Shown here one piece after another: positions 7,745 to 37,010 of a stretch of 46,310 bases of DNA (its first letter is position 1; each line of letters begins with the position of its first letter). Both the position numbers and the translations under genes were made by a program. The notes beneath the pieces are model-generated. The model searched no databases. It saw only the letters and a program-made list of their open reading frames with translations, and was not told the origin of the DNA. Origin of the DNA: an uncultured Bacilli bacterium. GTDB taxonomy: Bacteria > Bacillota_I > Bacilli_A > RF39 > UBA660. The stretch is from NCBI GenBank assembly GCA_944359075.1, contig CALVSR010000002.1:1-46310 (forward strand), given 5' to 3'.

Positions 7745-7770
7745 AAAATTATTTCCCGGGAAATAATTTT
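7745..7770. promoter_or_regulatory. Noc-binding-site (NBS) palindrome AAAATTATTTCCCGGGAAATAATTTT
   Basis: Core 7750-7765 is TATTTCCCGGGAAATA, an exact match to the B. subtilis NBS consensus (ATTTCCCGGGAAAT). It lies directly 3' of rsmI and touches the stop codon, so it could also act as a weak bidirectional terminator. Confidence 0.65.
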
Positions 7771-12156: not shown

Positions 12157-13812
12157 CTAATTAATAGATATCATATCTTCTCCAAATAAGTCAATTGCTT
12201 GAGAAGTAATAGAATGATCAGATACCTCTTTTTTTTCTTTATGATACTGCCCTAATTCTAAAGGAATATACTGATATGAAATATTATTGTTTTTCTTTGC
12301 AATAAATTCATCTTTTGCAGTAGTCCATTCATCATTAGTCACCAAAGCAACATCATAATGTCTATTATAAATCTTTTCTAATAATTTTTGAACCTTTTCT
12401 AGTAAAGAAAATCCTCTATTAACCATAGAATCATAATCAAAAGAAATAATAACTTCTCCAGTTCCTACAGCTCTAACTATTCCATCTGAAATGTAACAAG
12501 CCGCAGCACCATATTCACTATCTAAAGCATAATCATTTAGTTTATTCCAGTTAGATTCAAAAAATTTTTTTTCTTTCTTATCTGCCCTAGCAAAACAGTT
12601 ATTAATAATTTGCTGATTTATTTGCTTTCTTTCAGAATCAGAAACTACAATCGATGAGGAAATTATTTCCCGGGAAATAATTTTGGAATCTGTTATGTTG
12701 TTTTTGTAATGTTCTAATTGAGAACTATTATCATTAACACTTAATATTTCAGGAGTTACTGAATTTTCTGATTTTTTATGATTCTGATTCATAAAAGATA
12801 ACATATTAATTTCCAAAATTGTTTTAATATCAGAAGCAGACTTAATATTTTTTAATAAATCATTAAAAACATTAGAAAAAGATAATAAAAATTCAATATT
12901 ATAAGAATCTTCATTTTCAATATAAAATTGAATACTCTTATTTTTGCACAATTGAAGCATATCTTGAATAAAAATAGCTAAATCTTTGCCATTATCATAA
13001 ATATTATCTATAAATTGAATTACCTCAGCGACTTGTTCATGATAAACACAATCTAAAAAATATTTCTTTTGCTGTTCTGAGACAATACCATTTACTTTTT
13101 GAAAATCATCCATTGAAATATTAGAATCAGAATAAGCATTTAATTTATCTAACATACCTACAGCATCTCGTAGACCACCATCCGATAATTCTGCAATTTT
13201 TTCTAATACTTCTGGATCTACTTTAATAGATTCTTTTTCACAAATATATTTCAATCTTTTTACAATATCAGAATTACTAATACGGTGAAACTCAAAGCAT
13301 TGACATCTAGAAATAATAGTGTTGGGAACCTTATGAAGATCAGTAGTAGCCAGAATAAAAATAACATGCTCAGGAGGTTCTTCCAAGGTTTTTAAAAGAG
13401 CATTAAATGCACCAATAGACAACATATGCACCTCATCAATAATATATACCTTATATTTTAATTGATTAGGAACTAAATTAATTTTACTCTTAATTTCTCT
13501 AATTTCATCCACTCCATTATTAGAAGCTGCATCAATTTCAATAATATCGGAGCTAAAACCTTGATTAATAGAAATACAATTTTCACATTTTTCACAGGCA
13601 TCTCCATTATCTAGATTAAGACAATTAACTGTCTTAGCCAGCAACTTAGCAATAGATGTTTTTCCAATCCCCCTAGGTCCAGAAAACATATAAGCATGAC
13701 ATACCTTATTTAACTTAATAGCATTTTTCAATATTTTAATAATTACATCTTGGCCAATTACATCTTCTAAAGTAGAAGGTCTATATTTTCTATATAAAGC
13801 TTGATAAGACAT
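12157..13812 (-). CDS. dnaX: DNA polymerase III gamma/tau subunit
   Basis: YRKYRPSTLEDVIGQD, Walker A GPRGIGKTS, Zn module CEKCENC, DEVHML and the SRC motif (ISRCQ). Confidence 0.95.
   Translation of the reverse strand: MSYQALYRKYRPSTLEDVIGQDVIIKILKNAIKLNKVCHAYMFSGPRGIGKTSIAKLLAKTVNCLNLDNGDACEKCENCISINQGFSSDIIEIDAASNNGVDEIREIKSKINLVPNQLKYKVYIIDEVHMLSIGAFNALLKTLEEPPEHVIFILATTDLHKVPNTIISRCQCFEFHRISNSDIVKRLKYICEKESIKVDPEVLEKIAELSDGGLRDAVGMLDKLNAYSDSNISMDDFQKVNGIVSEQQKKYFLDCVYHEQVAEVIQFIDNIYDNGKDLAIFIQDMLQLCKNKSIQFYIENEDSYNIEFLLSFSNVFNDLLKNIKSASDIKTILEINMLSFMNQNHKKSENSVTPEILSVNDNSSQLEHYKNNITDSKIISREIISSSIVVSDSERKQINQQIINNCFARADKKEKKFFESNWNKLNDYALDSEYGAAACYISDGIVRAVGTGEVIISFDYDSMVNRGFSLLEKVQKLLEKIYNRHYDVALVTNDEWTTAKDEFIAKKNNNISYQYIPLELGQYHKEKKEVSDHSITSQAIDLFGEDMISIN
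12660..12683. promoter_or_regulatory. NBS palindrome embedded in-frame in dnaX
   Basis: Core 12664-12679 is TATTTCCCGGGAAATA. It encodes the peptide IISREII in the variable tau linker. Confidence 0.6.
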
Positions 13813-14317: not shown

Positions 14318-14330
14318 ACATAATCACCTT

Positions 14331-14412
14331 AAAAAAGGTGCACATAAATATTAAATGTTAAGGCTGCTATTTTCCAATCCTGACCTGATTCCACCAATAT
14401 TTATTGCACCAT
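14331..14412 (-). ncRNA. ffs: small (4.5S-type) signal recognition particle RNA
   Basis: The minus strand reads GGUGCAAUAAAUAUUGGUGGAAUCAGGUCAGGAUUGGAAAAUAGCAGCCUUAACAUUUAAUAUUUAUGUGCACCUUUUUU. It contains the conserved domain IV (CAGGUCAGG...GGAA tetraloop...AGCAGCC), a 15-bp closing stem with one bulge and a 3' U-tract. It is adjacent to tadA/dnaX, as scr is in Bacillus. Confidence 0.85.
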
Positions 14413-14416
14413 AAAT

Positions 14417-14445
14417 ATAATATTATATTTTTTGCAAAATTTCAA
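14417..14445 (-). promoter_or_regulatory. sigma-A-type promoter of the SRP RNA
   Basis: On the minus strand: TTGAAA (14440-14445), a 17-nt spacer and TATTAT (14417-14422), about 7 nt upstream of the GGUGC 5' end. Confidence 0.55.
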
Positions 14446-14455
14446 TTATTTTCTA

Positions 14456-14471
14456 TGTTTCACGTGAAACA
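14456..14471. promoter_or_regulatory. parS: parS site 1 (ParB loading site)
   Basis: 16/16 match to TGTTTCACGTGAAACA. Lies ~10 bp upstream of the SRP RNA -35 element. Confidence 0.85.
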
Positions 14472-14660
14472 TCGCAAAAAATTTCAAAAACATCTCTATT
14501 GCAATTTAGTTTAACCAACCTATCATCTATAATTAAAATTTAAAAAAATCAGCATTAAAATTTAAAAGAGATATTTTCATCAGTTAATATAATAATGTTA
14601 TAATTGTTAGAATTTTAAATATATATAGAATACATAAAATTATAATAATAGTCATTCATA

Positions 14661-14676
14661 TGTTTCACGTGAAACA
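14661..14676. promoter_or_regulatory. parS: parS site 2
   Basis: 16/16 match. The palindrome extends to 30 nt (14654-14683). Confidence 0.85.
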
Positions 14677-14875
14677 TATGAATTCTTTTTTATAAATAAA
14701 AAAAGCAATCAATTTGTTTAGTTTCTATTCACCAAATAAAATCATTCTATATTAAATTTAATATTTAATAATCACAGCCAATTATATTAATCAAAATAAT
14801 ATAGTTTCCTATAATATAGGATAAAATATATAAATGAGTATCATATTAATCAAACACTATTTTCTATATAATCAA

Positions 14876-14891
14876 TGTTTCACGTGAAACA
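14876..14891. promoter_or_regulatory. parS: parS site 3
   Basis: 16/16 match. First element of a parS-DnaA box-NBS composite. Confidence 0.85.
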
Positions 14892-14892
14892 T

Positions 14893-14901
14893 TGTGGAAA
14901 A
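14893..14901 (-). promoter_or_regulatory. DnaA-box-like 9-mer TGTGGAAAA (reverse complement TTTTCCACA)
   Basis: Identical to the dominant box variant in this window's oriC. Sandwiched between parS 3 and an NBS. Confidence 0.4.
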
Positions 14902-14924
14902 TTATTTCCCGGGAAATAATTTTC
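14897..14924. promoter_or_regulatory. NBS palindrome (28 nt)
   Basis: Core 14903-14918 is TATTTCCCGGGAAATA. Its centre is 27 bp from the centre of parS 3. Confidence 0.7.
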
Positions 14925-15106
14925 ATGCAATTTCTAGAAAGTAAATATTTCTAATCTAATTTCAACACCTATAATCAAAATTTAAATACGACATTATCAA
15001 ATAATCTTTCATAATATTATTAACTCAGTCATATCAAAAATTACAACTTACATAAGTTCAAAATAATGCAAAAAATAAATATAGCATTCAAATAATCATC
15101 ATTTAA

Positions 15107-15122
15107 TGTTTCACGTGAAACA
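15107..15122. promoter_or_regulatory. parS: parS site 4
   Basis: 16/16 match. The palindrome extends over 15103-15126. Confidence 0.85.
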
Positions 15123-15472
15123 TTAATTTTTTTTATTACTACTTAATTTTTAGTAAATAAGTTAACAAAAAATATCACTACTTTTAAAAAAAAACTAATA
15201 ATTAAATAAACATAATAATATAAATAATTAATATAAATATTAAAAATCATTAAAAAATTATTTTAACAACTATAAATATATATTAATCAAAAAAGCTCAA
15301 ATTCATAATTTTAATTATAACATTTCAAATATATTCTAGTAGTAATATTAATAATTATTTATGCTCCCCATTAATAGAATCTTAATCTCATTAAAATTTT
15401 TATTATCAATAGATTTCAGGATAATAAAAATTTAAACTCATCTATCAATAAGCAATTTAGCTATATGCACAA

Positions 15473-15488
15473 TGTTTCACGTGAAACA
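15473..15488. promoter_or_regulatory. parS: parS site 5
   Basis: 16/16 match. First element of the second composite. Confidence 0.85.
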
Positions 15489-15489
15489 C

Positions 15490-15498
15490 TGTGGAAAA
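15490..15498 (-). promoter_or_regulatory. DnaA-box-like TGTGGAAAA
   Basis: Same 9-mer and same position relative to parS and NBS as in the other composites. Confidence 0.4.
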
Positions 15499-15520
15499 TT
15501 ATTTCCCGGGAAATAATTTT
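15495..15520. promoter_or_regulatory. NBS palindrome (26 nt)
   Basis: Core 15500-15515 is TATTTCCCGGGAAATA. Its centre is 27 bp from the centre of parS 5. Confidence 0.7.
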
Positions 15521-15696
15521 TACTCGATTTATAAAAAATAAATATCTCTAATCTAATTTCAACATCTATAATTAAAATTTAAACACGATATTATTGAAGT
15601 AATTTTGTATAATATTATTACCTAATCTTGCTAAAACTATAACCATAAAATTTTTAAAATATTACTAAACATAGATATATAATTATAATCTTTGAA

Positions 15697-15712
15697 TGTT
15701 TCACGTGAAACA
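15697..15712. promoter_or_regulatory. parS: parS site 6
   Basis: 16/16 match. Confidence 0.85.
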
Positions 15713-16101
15713 TTGTATAAAGTTTATTTTATTGATTATTCTAATTTTTGAACAAAAAACTAATACAAATTATTACCATGCTTTTTAATATAATGATAAA
15801 CACAAAAATAGATATAATAATGTAGAACTATTAATGAAAATATTAAAATTAATTTTCTAACAACAATATTTCAGTAACTATAAAATATATTTTAAAGATC
15901 ATAAAAAATAGAATCATAATATTTAAAATTCAGCTACAATACCTCGAAAATTAAAAATATATTCTTAGTAGTCATATTGATAGCTATTTTCTATTTTAAC
16001 CAATAAAATTTCAAATTTTACTAAAATTTTTATCATAAATAGTTCTAAGAATAATTAATAATAAACTCATCTATTAATAAGAATTTTAACTATATATACA
16101 A

Positions 16102-16117
16102 TGTTTCACGTGAAACA
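16102..16117. promoter_or_regulatory. parS: parS site 7
   Basis: 16/16 match. The palindrome extends over 16098-16121. First element of the third composite. Confidence 0.85.
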
Positions 16118-16118
16118 T

Positions 16119-16127
16119 TGTGGAAAA
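16119..16127 (-). promoter_or_regulatory. DnaA-box-like TGTGGAAAA
   Basis: Same 9-mer and same geometry as in the other composites. Confidence 0.4.
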
Positions 16128-16149
16128 TTATTTCCCGGGAAATAATTTT
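16124..16149. promoter_or_regulatory. NBS palindrome (26 nt)
   Basis: Core 16129-16144 is TATTTCCCGGGAAATA. Its centre is 27 bp from the centre of parS 7. Confidence 0.7.
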
Positions 16150-16337
16150 TATTAAATCTCTAGAAAAGTGAACATTTTTAATCCAATTTTAGTAGATTTT
16201 AACATCCATAATTAGAATTTAAATACAATATTATTAATCTAACTTTTTATAATATAATTACCTAATGGTACTAAAACTATAACTATAAAAAATTTAAGAC
16301 ATCACTAAATGTAAATATTCAATAATAATTATTTCAA

Positions 16338-16353
16338 TGTTTCACGTGAAACA
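16338..16353. promoter_or_regulatory. parS: parS site 8
   Basis: 16/16 match. Lies ~50 bp beyond the gyrA stop codon. Confidence 0.85.
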
Positions 16354-16400
16354 TTATTAAAAACTTTTGCAATTTTACTAATAACAAAAAAGAAAACGTA

Positions 16401-19040
16401 TTACTTATCTTCTAATACGTTTTCCTCTACAACAGTTTCAGTTATATCATTTGTATCATCTGAATCATCTTTTAAAATGGTAGAAACAGTAGCTACTTTT
16501 TGGTCATCTTTTAATTTTATTAATCTAACACCTTGAGTAGCTCTACTTAAAGTAGAAATTTGATCCATCGCCATTCTCATGATAATTCCGCTATCTGTAA
16601 TAATAACCAAATCTTCTTCTCCCGTTACAGCCTTCAAAGATACTAACATACCATTCTTTTCTGTCACATTTAACGCTTTCACACCTTTACTTCCTCGGTG
16701 AGTTAAACGATACTCATCAATTGGGGTCTTTTTACCATAACCCTTTTCTGTAACAATCAAAACTTGCTCATTATTTGTAATAACTTCTCCTCCTACTACT
16801 TTAGCACCATTAAGCTCAATTCCTTTAACACCTGAAGCCGTACGACCCATAATACGAATCTCATTTTCTGTAAATCGAACCATTCTACCATTGGAAGCAC
16901 CAATGATAATCTCATTTTCACCAGTTGTCTTACGGACAGAAATTAACTCATCATCATCTTTAAGATTAATAGCGATTTTACCACTACTTCTAATATTATC
17001 AAACTCTGATAAATCCGTTCTCTTCACAATACCATTTTTAGTGATGAAACATAAATATTTGTATTCATGCTCTTTTGCACTTAAAGATACAATAGAATTA
17101 ATTTGCTCGTCTTTTTCCACAGATAATAAATTAATAATTGGCAGTCCTTTGCTTTGTCTGCTAAATTCTGGAATTTCATACCCTTTCATTCGATACACTT
17201 TACCTTTATTACTAAAGAATAATATATAATCATGCGTTTCCATATTTAACATTTTTTCCACAAAATCTTCCTCATTGGTAGCCATACCTTTTATACCAAC
17301 ACCACCACGGTTTTGTGTTCTATATTCGTCCACTAGCATTCTCTTAATATATCCCTTATTAGTTAATGTTATTAATGTATTTTCAACTGGAATTAAAGAC
17401 TCATCTTCAATATAATCAATCGCAGTCATATCAATTTTAGTTCTTCTATCATCACTGTATTTTTTCTTAATTTCTAACATTTCTTCTTTGATAATATCTA
17501 ATACTCTCTGCTCAGAAGCTAAAATTGCCTTATAATCTGTAATTTTAGCAATTAAATCATTCAATTCTGCTTCTACTTTTCCACGTTCTAAGCCTGTTAA
17601 ACGACGTAATCTCATTTCAAGAATACTATTAGCTTGTATTTCATCCAAATTAAATCGTGTCATCAAGTTAGATCTAGCCTCTTCATCACTATCGGCAGCT
17701 CTAATAATACGAACTACTTCATCAATGTTATCTAAAGCAATTCTTAAGCCTTCTAAAATATGAACTCTTTCTTCTGCTTTTCCCAATTCATAACGAGTTC
17801 TTCTAATAATAACCTCTTTTTGATGATCAATATACTTAGAAATAATATCTTTAATTCCTAAAGTTCTAGGAGTTTGACCATCCAAAACTAAGAAAATAAT
17901 ACCATATGAAATTTGAAAATTAGTATGTTTATACAAGTTATTTAACACAACTTGAGGATTAGCATCTTTTTTTAATGTAATAGTAATTTTAATTCCATTT
18001 TTCAAATCTGTATGATAATCAGAAATACCATCAATTACTTTATTATGAACCAGTTCAGCCACTTTGTTTTTTAGTTCCATTGTATTAACACCATAAGGAA
18101 CTTCATCAACAATAATACAACTATGATTTCCATGTTCTTCAATTGTCGCTTTACTTCTAACTGTAATAGATCCCCTACCTGTTTCATAAGCTTTTTTAAT
18201 ACCAGAATTTCCTAAAATAATACCTCCAGTAGGAAAATCAGGCCCTTTTATATATTGCATTAAACCAATAGTATCAATATCTGGATTGTCAATATAAGCA
18301 ATACAACCATCAATTACTTCACCAAGATTATGAGGAGGAATATTAGTAGCCATACCTACAGCAATTCCCATAGATCCATTAACCAATACATTAGGAAATC
18401 TTGAAGGAAGAACCTTCGGCTCTTTTCTAGTAGCATCAAAATTATCATTCATATCCACAGTATCTTTATTAATATCTCTTAATAATTCCAATGAAATTTT
18501 AGCTAGCCTAGACTCCGTATAACGCATTGCTGCGGCACCATCACCTTCAATATTACCAAAGTTTCCATGTCCATCAATCAACATATATCTTTGATTAAAA
18601 TCCTGAGCAAGTCTAACCATCGCTTCATAGATAGAAGAGTCTCCATGAGGATGATAATTACCCATAACTTCTCCGACTGTTTTAGCACTCTTTCTATGAG
18701 GTTTATCAGGAGTATAACCAGATTCATACATAGACCATAAAATACGTCTATGAACAGGCTTTAAACCATCTCTAAGATCTGGTAATGCACGAGAAGTAAT
18801 AACACTTAAAGAATACTCTAAAAAAGAGGTTTCTACTTCATCTACAATATTATTATTATCTAATCTATCTCTTTCATGAAAATATCCATGAAATTCTCCA
18901 TTTTCTACATTATCAATTCCTAATTGAGAATTATTATCATTAACAATTGATTTATCATCTATAGATTCATTTATATTATCCGTATTATCATTTTCATTTG
19001 CTCTATTTAATAATTCATCTAAATCCTCTTTATTATTCAT
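16401..19040 (-). CDS. gyrA: DNA gyrase subunit A
   Basis: SRALPDLRDGLKPVHRRIL, the active-site region AAMRYTE, and C-terminal beta-pinwheel repeats. Follows gyrB. Carries an Asn/Asp-rich N-terminal extension of about 50 aa and an acidic tail. Confidence 0.97.
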   Translation of the reverse strand: MNNKEDLDELLNRANENDNTDNINESIDDKSIVNDNNSQLGIDNVENGEFHGYFHERDRLDNNNIVDEVETSFLEYSLSVITSRALPDLRDGLKPVHRRILWSMYESGYTPDKPHRKSAKTVGEVMGNYHPHGDSSIYEAMVRLAQDFNQRYMLIDGHGNFGNIEGDGAAAMRYTESRLAKISLELLRDINKDTVDMNDNFDATRKEPKVLPSRFPNVLVNGSMGIAVGMATNIPPHNLGEVIDGCIAYIDNPDIDTIGLMQYIKGPDFPTGGIILGNSGIKKAYETGRGSITVRSKATIEEHGNHSCIIVDEVPYGVNTMELKNKVAELVHNKVIDGISDYHTDLKNGIKITITLKKDANPQVVLNNLYKHTNFQISYGIIFLVLDGQTPRTLGIKDIISKYIDHQKEVIIRRTRYELGKAEERVHILEGLRIALDNIDEVVRIIRAADSDEEARSNLMTRFNLDEIQANSILEMRLRRLTGLERGKVEAELNDLIAKITDYKAILASEQRVLDIIKEEMLEIKKKYSDDRRTKIDMTAIDYIEDESLIPVENTLITLTNKGYIKRMLVDEYRTQNRGGVGIKGMATNEEDFVEKMLNMETHDYILFFSNKGKVYRMKGYEIPEFSRQSKGLPIINLLSVEKDEQINSIVSLSAKEHEYKYLCFITKNGIVKRTDLSEFDNIRSSGKIAINLKDDDELISVRKTTGENEIIIGASNGRMVRFTENEIRIMGRTASGVKGIELNGAKVVGGEVITNNEQVLIVTEKGYGKKTPIDEYRLTHRGSKGVKALNVTEKNGMLVSLKAVTGEEDLVIITDSGIIMRMAMDQISTLSRATQGVRLIKLKDDQKVATVSTILKDDSDDTNDITETVVEENVLEDK

Positions 19041-22234: not shown

Positions 22235-22684
22235 TTATTTTTTCATTTTTCGATCATTTAAAATTAAATTTAATCTAGAAGCTCTCATAATTTGATTTTG
22301 GACAGACTGTTTAGAAGCAATGCATTCTATTTCTTTGCCATTTTTTAATAAAATATATGTCTTATGATTTTGCTCATAAACCTTATCTACCCATTTTAAT
22401 GATATCCAAGTACATTGAACATTTTCTGGTGATGAAATAGGAAAAAAAATCAAATCAGAGCTTTCTTCTACAATAATAGGCAACTTATAATTAGCCCCTA
22501 ACATTTTTCTACTCCCATCTACCCTACCTACATAAGAACTTCCAAAATATTTACAAGAATAATCCATTACTTCATAAGCCATATCTTGAACTAAGTATTC
22601 CCGATTCTGTTCTACGATTCTAGTCTGATTTTTATCCAAACCAATGACAGCTAATGTTTCCTCATTTACTTCATATTTTTCCAT
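22235..22684 (-). CDS. comK: ComK-family competence transcription factor
   Basis: The pattern YEVNEETLAVI...YSCKYFGSSYVGRVDGSRKMLGANYKLPIIV...IFFPISSPENVQCTWISL matches the ComK family. Strong GGGGGGAG RBS. Confidence 0.7.
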   Translation of the reverse strand: MEKYEVNEETLAVIGLDKNQTRIVEQNREYLVQDMAYEVMDYSCKYFGSSYVGRVDGSRKMLGANYKLPIIVEESSDLIFFPISSPENVQCTWISLKWVDKVYEQNHKTYILLKNGKEIECIASKQSVQNQIMRASRLNLILNDRKMKK

Positions 22685-24157: not shown

Positions 24158-25555
24158 TTAAACAATTTCTTTCTTTAATTTCTCTATAATATTAGCAAGT
24201 TCTTTATTAGTCAATATCTCTTTTTCAATTTTTTCTACAGAATGCATAACAGTAGAATGATCTTTTCCACCAAATTCAATTCCTATTTTTGGAAAAGATT
24301 CATTGGTAAGTTTTCGACAGAGATACATAGCTACTTGTCTTGGAAATGCAAGGTTAGCACTTCTCTTTTTAGATTTCATATCTTCTACCGATACTTGAAA
24401 ATATTCTGCTACAATTCGTTGAATTCGATTTACACTATTTTTTTCACTATATCCTTTATTAACAAAGTCTTTTAATACATCCACTGCTAAATCTAGAGTA
24501 ATTTCAGTACCACCCATGATAGTGGAATATGCAAGTAATCTCGTAATAGAACCTTCGAGATGTCTAACATCGCTACCAACATTAGAAGCAATATATTCAA
24601 TTACATCATCGGGTATGCTTTTATTAATAGACTCCCCTATGATTTTCTTTTTGATAATAGCAACTCTTAAATCAAAATCGGGAGGAAAAATATCCGCAGT
24701 CAATCCCCAACAGAACCTAGTTCTTAAGCGATCCTCTAATAGTTTTAAGTCATCTGGAGATCGATCAGATGATATAATGATCTGTTTATTTTCATCATAT
24801 AGTTTTGTAAAAGTATTAAAAAATTCATTTTGTGTTTGTGGCGCACCTTGAAAAAATTGAATATCATCTACAATCAAAACATCTATACTTCTATATTTAT
24901 TTTTAAAATAGGAAACATAATCAAAATTTTTTCCATGTTCATCTTTTTTATTAATTCCAAGAAAGTCAGTAATAAATTGGTCACTAGATACATATAAAAC
25001 TTTTTTATTAGAATGTTCTGTAATATAATTTCCAATTGCGTGCATCAAATGTGTTTTCCCTAACCCACTATTTCCATAAATAAATAAAGGATTATAAAGA
25101 ACACCTGGGTTTTCAGCTACTTCTAGTGCCGCAGCTTGGGCAAATTTATTAGTATTTCCTACAATAAAATTATCAAAGGTATAATTTTTATTCAAATTAG
25201 AAGAAAAATTATTAGATGAGTTTTGAAGATTAGTATTTTGTTCATTTTCATTTTGCCAATAAATAGGCTGAATTTTCTCTTGTTGAGCTTGTTGAGAAAG
25301 TTCTTCTATTTCTTCTTGTGTATAAAATTCAATATCTACATTATCTCCTACAACATTACTTAAATTTTTAACAATCAAATCATAGTATTTTGTCGTAAGA
25401 TGTTTTTTATAAATCGACATAGGGACAATGATTTTACAAATACCATCTTTATATTCATATAATTCAGTATTTTGAAACCAAGTCTCAAAGGAAAGAGGAT
25501 TCATTTCGGTTTTAATATTATTTAAAAAATTAGACCATATAATTTTTATATTCAC
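24158..25555 (-). CDS. dnaA: chromosomal replication initiator DnaA
   Basis: AAA+ Walker A GNSGLGKTHL, Walker B VLIVDDIQF, and the domain IV region KIGIEFGGKDHSTVMHS. GTG start with a strong GGGGGGA RBS. Confidence 0.97.
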   Translation of the reverse strand: MNIKIIWSNFLNNIKTEMNPLSFETWFQNTELYEYKDGICKIIVPMSIYKKHLTTKYYDLIVKNLSNVVGDNVDIEFYTQEEIEELSQQAQQEKIQPIYWQNENEQNTNLQNSSNNFSSNLNKNYTFDNFIVGNTNKFAQAAALEVAENPGVLYNPLFIYGNSGLGKTHLMHAIGNYITEHSNKKVLYVSSDQFITDFLGINKKDEHGKNFDYVSYFKNKYRSIDVLIVDDIQFFQGAPQTQNEFFNTFTKLYDENKQIIISSDRSPDDLKLLEDRLRTRFCWGLTADIFPPDFDLRVAIIKKKIIGESINKSIPDDVIEYIASNVGSDVRHLEGSITRLLAYSTIMGGTEITLDLAVDVLKDFVNKGYSEKNSVNRIQRIVAEYFQVSVEDMKSKKRSANLAFPRQVAMYLCRKLTNESFPKIGIEFGGKDHSTVMHSVEKIEKEILTNKELANIIEKLKKEIV

Positions 25556-31441: not shown

Positions 31442-31469
31442 AAAAATTATTTCCCGGGAAATAATTTTT
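31442..31469. promoter_or_regulatory. NBS palindrome (28 nt)
   Basis: Core 31448-31463 is TATTTCCCGGGAAATA. Lies between the small ORF and mnmG and may also act as a terminator. Confidence 0.65.
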
Positions 31470-34209: not shown

Positions 34210-35256
34210 ATGGATAAAGAAGTAGTAGAACTATACTTAGATGATATAATTCCAAATCGTTTTCAACCACGTGAAGTATTTAATGAAGAAGCGTTAAAGG
34301 AATTATCAGATTCTATTAAAGAACATGGAGTAATTCAACCAATTATTGTGAGAAAAATAGGCGATAAATATGAAATTATTGCGGGAGAAAGAAGATATAA
34401 AGCATCTGCTATGGCTGGTCTAACTAAAATTCCAGCTATTATCCGTAATCTTGATGATAAAGAAGCTTCTAAAGTAGCTCTTTTAGAAAATTTGCAAAGG
34501 AAAGATTTAACAGCAATAGAAGAAGCAAGAACTTATCAAAAAATATTAGAATTAGATTCTATGACACAAGAAGAATTAGGACGAACTATGGGAAAATCTC
34601 AAGCAGCAATTGCTAATAAAATGAGATTATTATCACTACCAGATGAAGTTCAAGAAGCACTTTTACAAGATAAAATATCAGAGCGTCATGCTAGAAGTCT
34701 ATTAAATTTGGATACAAGTGAAGAACAAATAAACATGTTAAGAAAAATTATTGAAAATCGTATGACAGTAAGAGATTTAGATAATGAAATTAGGAATATA
34801 AAAGGAGAAAATACAATTTCATCTATTATGAATCATGATAATATAGCCATAGTGCCAGAAAATAAATCCACAATAAATCAACCAACTTCTATTTTAGAAA
34901 GCTCAAAATTAGAATCTAATTCAGTGGAAGAAAAACAATCCGAAGCAGAAGATGCTTTACCTGATTTTCCTTTACCAACTCCTAATCCAATTGAAAATCT
35001 AGAAGAATATATGGAAGAAGACTCAAAAGACCAAATCAAGATAGAGCCTGTTTCTAAACCTTCTCAACCGGATTCTGATTTTAAAATGATTGATGAATTA
35101 TTAAAATCTACACAGACTTATACTATAAAAGATGCAGTAAATGAAATTAAAAGTGTAACTGCTAAAGCAGAAAATAAAGGAATCCATATAAAAGTAGAAG
35201 AAATGGATTTTGAAAACAATTATCAAATCATTATAAATATCGAAAAAAATAAGTAA
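34210..35256 (+). CDS. noc: Noc-like ParB-family protein (nucleoid occlusion protein paralogue)
   Basis: ParB N-domain (IPNRFQPR, IIAGERRYKAS). The HTH GKSQAAIANKMRLLSLP has Gln where ParB has Arg, as Noc does. The C-terminus VEEMDFENNYQIIINIEKNK resembles the Noc C-terminus as I recall it. Sits between rsmG and soj as in Bacillus. Perfect NBS sites are present in the window. Confidence 0.75.
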   Translation: MDKEVVELYLDDIIPNRFQPREVFNEEALKELSDSIKEHGVIQPIIVRKIGDKYEIIAGERRYKASAMAGLTKIPAIIRNLDDKEASKVALLENLQRKDLTAIEEARTYQKILELDSMTQEELGRTMGKSQAAIANKMRLLSLPDEVQEALLQDKISERHARSLLNLDTSEEQINMLRKIIENRMTVRDLDNEIRNIKGENTISSIMNHDNIAIVPENKSTINQPTSILESSKLESNSVEEKQSEAEDALPDFPLPTPNPIENLEEYMEEDSKDQIKIEPVSKPSQPDSDFKMIDELLKSTQTYTIKDAVNEIKSVTAKAENKGIHIKVEEMDFENNYQIIINIEKNK

Positions 35257-35347: not shown

Positions 35348-36136
35348 ATGGGAAAGATCATTTCATTAGTAAATCAAAAAGGTGGAGTAGGAAAAACAAC
35401 AACTAGTATTAATCTTTCTGCATCACTGGCATATTTAGGTAAAAAAGTATTATTAATTGATTTAGATCCTCAAGGAAATACAACAACGGGAGTAGGAATT
35501 AATAAAGGGGATATTACAAACAGTGTCCATGAAGTATTAACAGAAAAATGCAATATCACAGAAGCAATTATTAAAACAAAATATAAAAATCTTTATGTTT
35601 TACCAGCAACTATTAATTTAGCAGGATTAGATATGGAATTAATGGAAAAGAGTAAAACAAATCAAAATTTTATCAAGAATGCACAGTTAAAAACATTTCT
35701 AGATCCTATTAAAGATGTATTTAATTACATTATCATCGATTGTCCTCCATCTTTAGGACTTATTACAACCAATGCTTTAACTGCTTCTGATTCTGTAATT
35801 ATTCCTGTTCAATGTGAATTTTTTGCTTTGGAGGGAATTACGCAATTATTGAATACCATTATGCTAGCTCAAAAGAATTTAAATCCTAATCTAGATATAG
35901 AAGGTGTTTTATTAACAATGTTAGATTCAAGAACTCTTTTAGGATTAGAAGTAGTGGAAGATATTCGTAGATTTTTTAAAGAAAGAGTCTATAATACAAT
36001 TATTCCAAGATTAGTAAAATTAACAGAAGCACCATCTCATGGGAAACCCATATTAGCTTATGACCCAAAACATAGGGCGACAGAAGCATATATAAATTTA
36101 GCAAAGGAAGTGATTGCAAGAAATGGAAACATCTAG
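35348..36136 (+). CDS. soj: chromosome partitioning ATPase ParA/Soj
   Basis: Deviant Walker A NQKGGVGKTTT, followed by DLDPQGN and DCPPSLG. Confidence 0.95.
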   Translation: MGKIISLVNQKGGVGKTTTSINLSASLAYLGKKVLLIDLDPQGNTTTGVGINKGDITNSVHEVLTEKCNITEAIIKTKYKNLYVLPATINLAGLDMELMEKSKTNQNFIKNAQLKTFLDPIKDVFNYIIIDCPPSLGLITTNALTASDSVIIPVQCEFFALEGITQLLNTIMLAQKNLNPNLDIEGVLLTMLDSRTLLGLEVVEDIRRFFKERVYNTIIPRLVKLTEAPSHGKPILAYDPKHRATEAYINLAKEVIARNGNI

Positions 36137-37010
36137 GAGAAAAGCCTTAGGAAGAGGCTTAGAAGAGTTATTTAATAATGAACCAATGGAATATAATAAA
36201 ATTGAGGAGAAAATAATAGAAGAGACCAATAATGAAGAAATTGTAGAACTTCCCTTATCAGAATTAAGAAGTAATCCATATCAACCTCGAAAGAACTTTG
36301 ATGAAAATGCTCTACAAGAATTAGCTACTTCTATTAAAGAACATGGTGTATTCCAACCAATTATTGCCAAAAAAAGTATTAAAGGATATGAAATTATTGC
36401 CGGTGAACGACGTGTAAAAGCTTCTATCTTAGCAGGAAAAGAAACGATTCCAGCTATTATCCGTGATTTTTCTGACCAAGATATGATGGAAATAGCATTA
36501 CTAGAAAATCTACAAAGAGAAAATCTAAATGCCATAGAAGAAGCAATGGCTTATAAAAAATTATTAGATGAATTACATTTAACCCAAGAATCTCTTGCAA
36601 AGAGATTAGGAAAAAGTAGAAGTCATATTACCAATATGTTAGGGTTATTAACTTTACCAGAAGAAGTAAAAGATATGATTATGACTGGCAAACTTTCTAT
36701 GAGTCATGCCCGTGTTTTAAGTAAAATTGAAAATAGTGACCAAATCAAGGAATTGGCTGACAAAATTATTGTAGATGGTTTAAGTGTACGTGAAATAGAG
36801 GAATTATCTCATAATACCAATCTAGAAAAGAAAAATGTTCAAACGAAGCACGATACAAATCGCAATGAATATAAAGTAATAGAAGAAGAATTATCAGAAA
36901 AACTTGGTACCAAAGTTCGTATCAAAAACAACAAAATAGAATTACATTTTGTAAATTCAAGTGATTTGAATAGAATCATAGAAATTATAGGATTAGAAAA
37001 CGAATGTTAG
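36123..37010 (+). CDS. spo0J: chromosome partitioning protein ParB/Spo0J
   Basis: N-terminal ParA-interaction peptide RKALGRGLEELF, NPYQPR, IIAGERRVKAS, and the HTH GKSRSHITNMLGLLTLP (Arg-type). The start is either the ATG at 36123 or the TTG at 36114. Confidence 0.93.
   Translation: METSRRKALGRGLEELFNNEPMEYNKIEEKIIEETNNEEIVELPLSELRSNPYQPRKNFDENALQELATSIKEHGVFQPIIAKKSIKGYEIIAGERRVKASILAGKETIPAIIRDFSDQDMMEIALLENLQRENLNAIEEAMAYKKLLDELHLTQESLAKRLGKSRSHITNMLGLLTLPEEVKDMIMTGKLSMSHARVLSKIENSDQIKELADKIIVDGLSVREIEELSHNTNLEKKNVQTKHDTNRNEYKVIEEELSEKLGTKVRIKNNKIELHFVNSSDLNRIIEIIGLENEC

Follow-up and report, generated by a model that had tools for sequence, protein, structure and literature searches.

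Genomic Setting of the parS Array

The stretch of DNA considered here (the window) is the whole 46,310-bp contig CALVSR010000002.1 of a metagenome-assembled genome (MAG) from an uncultured gut bacterium of the Bacilli. The MAG was built from short reads and comprises 1.34 Mb in 90 contigs, with a GC content of 29% and a completeness of 92%. The subject of this report is an array of eight parS sites, the predicted loading sites of the partition protein Spo0J/ParB, in the gap between ffs and gyrA. The cumulative GC skew of the contig reaches its minimum at ~25.5 kb, which places the replication origin on this contig. To the left of the origin, the minus strand encodes dnaA (24158-25555), dnaN, recF, gyrB, and gyrA (16401-19040; NF004043, 1146.8 bits), and to the right the plus strand runs from rnpA through mnmG and rsmG to noc-like, soj, and spo0J. 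The array lies 9-11 kb from oriC, as placed by the GC-skew minimum and by the box cluster upstream of dnaA. It occupies a 1.98-kb gene-free gap that extends from ffs (14415) to the gyrA stop codon (16401). The left boundary, ffs, encodes the small signal recognition particle RNA on the minus strand (14329-14415; Rfam RF00169, 57.1 bits, E 5e-10).

A Higher-Order Repeat With Two parS Sites per Unit

Eight copies of the parS palindrome TGTTTCACGTGAAACA, each without a mismatch, begin at positions 14456, 14661, 14876, 15107, 15473, 15697, 16102, and 16338, and all of them match the parS consensus TGTTNCACGTGAAACA at 16 of 16 positions. By chance, 0.02 such sites would be expected, and none of 100 shuffles reached eight or more. 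Elsewhere in the 1.34-Mb genome, no parS with up to one mismatch was found, and a single copy has two mismatches.

A sequence-only reading of the window had described these sites as the ends of four modules that alternate with spacers, with a period of ~600-630 bp. The sites, the four parS-bounded modules, and the internal and spacer strings quoted in that reading are all present as written, and a repeat finder returned start-to-start periods of 597 and 629 bp. Tandem Repeats Finder is blind to this unit because its longest period is 500. The modules (M1-M4) and spacers (S1-S3) were compared by global alignment with the 16-bp parS cores taken out, and the scores were expressed as z against shuffles. 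The interiors of M2 and M3 are 82% identical (z 17.8), those of M2 and M4 79% (z 13.3), and those of M3 and M4 81% (z 17.8). Spacers S2 and S3, which had been called alike (as 15127-15472 and 15715-16097), are 77% identical (z 13.1). The leftmost module had been singled out as the most diverged and as lacking a DnaA box and a Noc-binding site (NBS). Both are indeed missing from M1 and present in M2-M4, and M1 resembles M2-M4 only weakly (~70% identity, z 2.7-4.2). Spacer S1 is unrelated to S2 and S3 in the same shuffle-tested alignments (z ~1). The homology of M2-M4 thus stands, but the picture of four equivalent modules does not: the architecture is M1-S1, followed by 2.5 copies of a ~600-630-bp unit with two parS sites.

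Each unit consists of a composite parS, an interior of ~190 bp, a plain parS, and a spacer of 350-390 bp. The decayed module M1 (14456-14676) runs from parS1 (14456-14471) to parS2 (14661-14676) and is followed by S1 (14677-14875), which is orthologous to the parS2-parS3 interval of a sister species (genome G011; z 8.5). Unit copy 1 (14861-15457) contains the composite parS3 (14876-14891) with the 9-mer TGTGGAAAA at 14893-14901 and an NBS at 14903-14918, then the M2 interior, the plain parS4 (15107-15122), and S2. Unit copy 2 (15458-16086) repeats this order with parS5 (15473-15488), the box (15490-15498), the NBS (15500-15515), the M3 interior, parS6 (15697-15712), and S3. The partial unit copy 3 (16087-16400) has parS7 (16102-16117), the box (16119-16127), the NBS (16129-16144), the M4 interior, and parS8 (16338-16353), and lacks a spacer; it is orthologous to the parS4-parS5 interval of the sister species.

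Two further observations concern the repeat. The second parS site is embedded in a 30-bp perfect palindrome, ATTCATATGTTTCACGTGAAACATATGAAT, which is followed by TCTTTTTT (14654-14683) and appears in the consensus scan as a terminator-like hairpin on the plus strand. A CRISPR-like array was also considered and ruled out; the spacers measure 190-390 bp and are mutually homologous, and the repeat is canonical parS.

Support From Independent Assemblies

In principle, the repeat architecture could be an assembly artefact, with a chimeric or mis-joined MAG contig running through a repetitive region. The fragmentation of this short-read MAG into 90 contigs would fit such a history, as would the fate of nine other contigs with an identical TadA (loci L115-L123), which break off 65-1147 bp inside the array, in two cases exactly at 15461, where the repeated unit begins. 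Set against this, the units are ~20% different and hence distinguishable at assembler k-mer sizes, with a longest exact repeat of ~50 nt. Other assemblies reproduce positions 14318-15461 at 98.5-100% identity, and an independent contig from another sample reproduces positions 15177-16400 at 100%; the two sets share part of the unique spacer S2 and together tile the whole array. Assemblies of the 23 genus genomes examined likewise place arrays of this kind at this locus. The order of the eight sites is supported by these independent assemblies, and an artefact is very improbable. A scan of JGI metagenomes with a pattern spanning the ffs-parS1 junction returned no match.

Conservation of the Sites

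The sequence-only reading had also proposed that the parS cores are kept by purifying selection as their flanks drift. When the three units are aligned column by column, the parS and NBS cores are better conserved than the flanks: all 57 columns of the parS, DnaA-box-like, and NBS motifs are invariant, compared with 133 of the 243 other columns (55%; Fisher p=1.6e-13). The longest invariant runs in the units are a 31-nt block containing the box and the NBS and the two parS sites with their flanks, and the next longest run is 8 nt. A similar contrast is seen between the window and the orthologous blocks of the sister species, in which the parS cores are identical at 79 of 80 positions and the remaining columns at 440 of 727 (60%; p=3e-15). 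The GyrA proteins of the two species are 98.6% identical, and identity at the four-fold sites of gyrA, dnaX, and tadA is 83-88%. Within the species, the main alternative haplotype, which is represented by strains from other assemblies, shows 17 differences, none of them in parS or NBS. Farther afield, 106 of 120 parS sites at relatives' loci fit TGTTYCACGTGRAACA, in which the variable position is the known degenerate one.

Identity of this kind could also arise without selection if the copies were the product of a very recent duplication. Beyond the perfect identity of the cores, nothing favors this explanation. Within the array, the flanks of these very copies show 18-23% divergence, and 45% of the non-core columns vary; the near-complete identity of the sister-species sites beside flanks at 60%, as well as the fit of 106 of the 120 relatives' sites to a single pattern, argue in the same direction. 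Recent duplication can be regarded as already refuted by these comparisons and has next to no probability left. Purifying selection on the parS and NBS sites, as judged from the pattern of substitution, is strongly supported.

A separate observation concerns the related genome G010 (locus L105, 2386-4669), where none of the 11 parS sites in the array matches TGTTTCACGTGAAACA exactly; nearly all of the deviations are at the degenerate positions 5 and 12, and the usual form is TGTTCCACGTGGAACA. The pattern resembles a change in the preferred variant throughout the species.

Composite Sites of parS, a DnaA-Box-Like Motif, and NBS

The composite sites have a fixed order: parS, 1 nt, TGTGGAAAA, 1 nt, and a perfect 16-bp NBS, TATTTCCCGGGAAATA, which is placed 11 bp from parS. 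Read on the opposite strand, the 9-mer TGTGGAAAA is TTTTCCACA, the kind of box found in this genome's own oriC. The array contains three such TTTTCCACA motifs, which are putative DnaA boxes; they are partly explained by the flanks of the neighboring palindromes, and one of them is disrupted in a second haplotype. In this haplotype, which is 98.5% identical over the left half of the array (loci L115, L116, and L120), the parS3 box at 14893-14901 has changed from TGTGGAAAA to TGTATGAAAA, with parS and NBS untouched.

The genome holds six NBS, all of which are perfect and lie within ~18 kb of oriC. Three are joined to parS, and those outside the array are found at 7750-7765, 12664-12679, and 31448-31463; no further NBS with one or two mismatches was detected elsewhere in the genome. 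All six share the extended palindrome AAAATTATTTCCCGGGAAATAATTTT, and parS is likewise extended, to CAATG...CATTG. One of the NBS falls within the coding sequence of dnaX and has been conserved across at least 12 other species. Each of 29 genomes of the genus has 1-8 perfect NBS, and among the matches listed nearly all are on origin-region or array contigs.

Across 24 loci, a DnaA box with up to one mismatch lies 0-3 nt away on the gyrA (oriC) side of 45 of 128 parS sites and on the mirror side of none, and 42 of the 128 have an NBS that starts 26-31 nt from the parS start. NBS-bearing and plain sites alternate in 61 of 104 adjacent pairs, compared with 49 +/- 4 by permutation, related genomes not being independent; this alternation is descriptive and not a test of selection, as amplification of a two-site unit yields alternation by itself. 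Of 17 complete arrays, 16 end on the gyrA side with a plain parS. Among 301 sampled genomes of the order, 24 genomes from 16 genera carry a tight composite of perfect parS and perfect NBS separated by 8-16 nt. After parS and NBS are masked, DnaA boxes, in either orientation, are the k-mers shared most widely, with genome counts barely above the shuffled null. Perfect TGTGGATAA boxes are present in other species, some of them beside parS sites that lack an NBS. The reading of the motif as a DnaA box rests mainly on such other species; the TGTGGAAAA of the window is mostly covered by the flanks of parS and NBS.

These patterns raise the possibility that selection acts on the tripartite composite rather than on parS dosage. 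The array would then be a regulatory hub where ParB, DnaA, and a Noc-like protein meet, either as a DnaA sink or timer or with a Noc roadblock or tether beside each ParB-loading site, and the plain parS sites and spacers would be passengers. Consistent with this, no invariant run in the units is longer than the 31-nt TGTGGAAAATTATTTCCCGGGAAATAATTTT, the boxes beside parS lie on the gyrA side only, 42 of the 128 parS sites have an NBS at a similar distance, perfect TTATCCACA boxes occur in several species, the oriC of this genome uses the same box type, NBS-bearing and plain sites alternate more than permutation predicts, and every NBS of the genome is near the origin. However, the 9-mer of the window is largely the junction of two extended palindromes, with CATTG contributed by parS and AAAATT by the NBS extension, and the box beside parS3 is disrupted in the second haplotype. 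The arrays of two relatives (G017 and G006) are almost without NBS, and the excess of alternating pairs may simply follow from unit amplification among genomes that are not independent samples. A hub of this kind is conceivable, though rather doubtful on present evidence; it overlaps with the interpretation of the array as a centromere that is given below and is compatible with it.

Predicted Reader Proteins

Candidate readers for both kinds of site are encoded to the right of the origin on the plus strand. The presumed reader of parS is a Spo0J/ParB protein of 298 aa (36114-37010; TIGR00180, 208 bits) that has parS-type residues at the four specificity positions in the residue scheme of PMC7383237, with an R173-type Arg and no Arg at 201. 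It is preceded by a Soj/ParA ATPase (35348-36136) identified through ParA-family matches. The presumed reader of NBS is a Noc-like ParB paralogue of 348 aa (34210-35256), which matches TIGR04285 with 291 bits, below the cut-off of 315. Its specificity residues are of the NBS type (Q173, K179, and R201, with Ser at position 184), and one permissive lysine at 179 or 184 suffices for NBS recognition (Jalal et al. 2020, PMC7383237). SMC (992 bits) and FtsZ are also encoded in the genome.

The best PDB matches of the Noc-like paralogue are the Noc structures 7NG0, 7NFU, and 7OL9, which align from query residue 3-4 and from their own residue 27-28. No N-terminal membrane-targeting helix was found in the paralogue, and its open reading frame (ORF) begins right at the ParB N-domain, 14 residues before the PNRFQPR box. 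Without this helix, and with NBS that are not scattered over the chromosome outside the terminus region, the Noc-like paralogue fails two defining features of classical nucleoid occlusion. At its C-terminus, the protein carries a low-complexity, acidic, Pro-rich extension of ~100 aa, followed by a small C-terminal domain.

Edges of the Array and Its Internal Blocks

Signals for transcription are found at both edges of the array. On the left, a promoter-like site for ffs (14417-14445, minus strand; TTGAAA-17-TATTAT, 10/12 in the consensus scan) lies 10 bp from parS1, and its sequence is conserved in the sister species; its function as a promoter is putative. On the right, a predicted intrinsic terminator of gyrA (16380-16424, minus strand) was read from the sequence. 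A 12-bp stem (16392-16403 / 16413-16424), which overlaps the stop codon of gyrA, precedes TTTTTTGTTATT on the minus strand; the hairpin spans the last 25 nt of gyrA and 20 nt downstream, with the T-run after it. The consensus scan missed this terminator because of its 9-nt loop. With a gyrA terminator on one edge and an ffs promoter-like site on the other, the array would therefore fill an untranscribed gap between two co-directional transcription units.

The internal blocks shared by the modules had been proposed to be additional protein sites or small transcripts. One of these blocks is the 21-mer CATCTATAATTAAAATTTAAA, which recurs in all four modules of the window, the decayed M1 included, with 0, 2, 0, and 2 mismatches, and in the first module of the sister species with 3. 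The blocks are absent from the arrays of other species, being common to the sister species only, and no AT-rich k-mer exceeds the shuffled null across the arrays of different species; only DnaA-box k-mers stand out once parS and NBS are masked. Outside the known sites, no invariant run in the units is longer than 8 nt, and in a pair with ~70% identity an identical stretch of 21 nt does not clearly exceed chance expectation; a gene-conversion tract would explain it as well. An Rfam search of the array found no match even at E<=1, promoter-like sites are at chance level in the consensus scan (30 vs 27.2), and no ORF is longer than 36 aa. The proposal is thus not supported for additional protein sites, for small transcripts, or for promoters of such transcripts, and we consider it very unlikely. 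Five small ORFs of 25-36 aa were rejected as genes; they overlap parS and would encode low-complexity products of AT-rich sequence.

Elsewhere in the window, a 149-aa ORF between dnaN and recF (22235-22684, minus strand) has no NCBIfam match, and an identical copy (locus L124) is listed as Pfam ComK (PF06338).

Probable Growth and Turnover of the Array

Comparison with the sister species indicates how the array may have grown. The array of G011 has five parS sites in 1.0 kb, compared with eight in 1.9 kb in the window, and the two are colinear at both edges. The sister array is without ~1.2 kb, which corresponds to two units: its parS1-3 match parS1-3 of the window, and its parS4-5 match parS7-8. 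Its first module retains the box and the NBS that were lost from M1. In a tree of the modules, M1 groups with the first module of G011, and M2, M3, and M4 group with the last one (support 88/87). The path lengths among M2-M4 (0.38-0.49) are shorter than those to G011 (0.67-0.97). By this tree, M1 is an old paralogue that was already present before the split from G011, and M2-M4 are a younger, roughly equidistant triplet. The divergence gradient suggested by the sequence-only reading must be revised accordingly. In the best reading of these data, the ancestor would already have had two module lineages, and the one on the gyrA side was probably amplified in the line of the window, or lost in that of G011, around or after the split.

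At the strain level, a 22-bp tandem duplication, ATTAAAATTTAAAAAAATCAGC, is found in M1 (at ~14532 of the window; locus L123), which shows slippage at work in the array within the species.

The locus was collected from 23 genomes of the genus, and 11 genomes, including that of the window, were compared by BLAST with parS and NBS masked. A scoring of +2/-3 was used, as a permissive scoring of +1/-1 gave spurious 60% alignments among all AT-rich arrays. Wherever a contig spans the gap, tadA and gyrA flank the array. These arrays contain 2-11 parS sites over 144-2284 bp. The distances between parS sites form a broad histogram (54-844 bp, mostly 100-320). Direct repeats are present inside the arrays of 6 of the 11 genomes, namely the window (72.5% over 830 bp), G001 (81% over 222 bp, period 700), G017 (92% over 210 bp, period 623), G023 (89-96%, period ~313), G006 (74-83%), and G007 (66-72%). 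Between species, there are short matches only, comprising the array edges of one pair beside the flanking genes and three matches of 33-130 nt at 68-88%. The presence of repeats within arrays, together with the scant similarity between species, suggests that units are amplified and replaced quickly around the selected sites. Filler DNA that is specific to a species and repeated within its own array is the signature expected of amplification and replacement, or of concerted evolution, around conserved sites. Together with the colinear edges of the sister array and its deficit of two units, these species-specific internal repeats support the earlier proposal that the array grew by amplification of a ~0.6-kb unit.

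One subgroup of the genus (G004, G016, and G024; loci L108-L110) differs in geometry: the distance from the parS start to the NBS, again toward gyrA, is 45-47 bp rather than 27, and its arrays have a short period with ~120-180 bp between parS sites. In other families of the class, five of six genomes have a pair of parS sites within a few kb of gyrA, tadA, or both. This distribution suggests that the gyrA/tadA location is old and that the expansion is more recent.

Comparison With Known Systems

Chromosomal parS clusters were reportedly surveyed by Livny et al. in 2007. According to reviews, one to four parS sites are found in most species and at least 20 in some (PMC10786196). The array resembles the clusters of known ParABS systems, such as the Spo0J-parS system of B. 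subtilis, in that the same 16-bp palindrome is found near oriC, Spo0J/ParB, Soj/ParA, and SMC are encoded, and several sites are normal. Unlike those clusters, all of the sites are packed into one 1.9-kb gene-free gap, with none inside spo0J or another gene, and they belong to a higher-order tandem repeat that varies between sister species in filler and copy number. The sopC centromere of the F plasmid consists of 12 tandem 43-bp units, each with a SopB site. It is likewise a head-to-tail repeat with one palindrome per unit and a variable copy number, whereas the units described here are 5-15 times longer, carry two sites of two kinds, and are chromosomal with canonical parS.

The NBS in the array share the perfect TATTTCCCGGGAAATA with the Noc-NBS systems of B. 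subtilis and S. aureus, and here too a paralogue with Q173, K179, and R201 is encoded beside soj-spo0J (PMC7383237, PMC8429893, PMC4331003). The differences lie in the confinement of the six NBS to the ~18 kb around oriC, the joining of three of them to parS, and a paralogue with a ~100-aa C-terminal extension and no membrane-targeting helix at its N-terminus. In B. subtilis, Spo0J and Noc act jointly (PMC6852036), and in S. aureus Noc controls initiation (PMC5540599). DnaA binding at the Caulobacter centromere has been described (Mera et al. 2014, as cited in PMC6399470), and B. subtilis has clusters of DnaA boxes proximal to oriC (PMC3245932). As in these cases, DnaA-box motifs are found beside parS or near the origin, which suggests a link between initiation and segregation. 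The present box differs in that its distance from parS (0-1 nt) and its orientation are fixed, it recurs along with the unit, and it is partly explained by the palindromes.

In alpha satellite DNA, CENP-B boxes occur in alternate monomers. By analogy only, the centromere satellites of eukaryotes resemble the array in having short conserved boxes in every other unit of a fast-evolving repeat that is homogenized within species. Scale, chromatin, and proteins are different, and there is no evolutionary relationship.

A Probable Centromere in Turnover

Taken together, the observed sites, their repeat structure, their pattern of conservation, and the presence of the genes make it likely that the array is the single centromere of the chromosome, an origin-proximal and non-coding region with eight predicted ParB-loading sites in a higher-order repeat that turns over. 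Units would be gained by unequal homologous recombination or by replication slippage between the perfectly conserved site blocks. The ~50-nt composite and the 20-22-nt extended parS palindromes would serve as exact-repeat substrates, as they are the only long exact repeats available. Such gain may have occurred around or after the split from the five-parS sister species. Selection would keep every parS and NBS as the DNA between the sites drifts and units are gained, lost, and replaced, and copy number (2-11), period, and filler at this one locus would thereby come to differ from species to species in the genus. Many closely spaced loading sites would lead to a high local loading of Spo0J/ParB clamps, which would organize the origin region with Soj and SMC. 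DnaA and the Noc-like paralogue may be recruited to this complex at alternate sites, through the DnaA-box-like motif and the NBS.

Several points weigh against this interpretation. A single parS can suffice for segregation in other bacteria, and the benefit of eight is therefore assumed. The flanks within the array diverge faster than four-fold codon sites, which makes the neutral benchmark uncertain. The branching within the clade of M2-M4 and G011 is unsettled, and amplification after the split is favored by path lengths only. Furthermore, most other assemblies of the species break inside the array, such that copy numbers derived from MAGs are lower bounds, and near-identical units may have been collapsed or expanded undetected in this MAG or in those of relatives.

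A bolder interpretation is that the centromere evolves in the manner of eukaryotic satellites, with a repeat that is amplified, homogenized, and replaced around boxes that stay fixed for ParB, for an anchor-less Noc-like paralogue, and for DnaA. Composite and plain sites in alternation might then make up a two-clamp centromere in which replication initiation, origin segregation, and possibly division control are physically coupled. We put this forward as a speculation that is more likely to fail than to hold. Full-text searches of the literature turned up neither a higher-order parS repeat that turns over nor a mixed parS/NBS array.

Clusters of parS are textbook knowledge and are usually treated as static sets of sites. 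The 23 genomes of this genus, along with related arrays in the wider family, provide a natural series in which the number, spacing, and type of the loading sites vary as the sites themselves stay perfect. With this series it can be tested directly what number and spacing of ParB-loading sites are required for a centromere, as well as whether selected binding sites, acting as recombination substrates, drive the turnover of the array in which they lie. A third testable question is what role is played by an origin-restricted, anchor-less Noc paralogue whose site lies 11 bp from parS.

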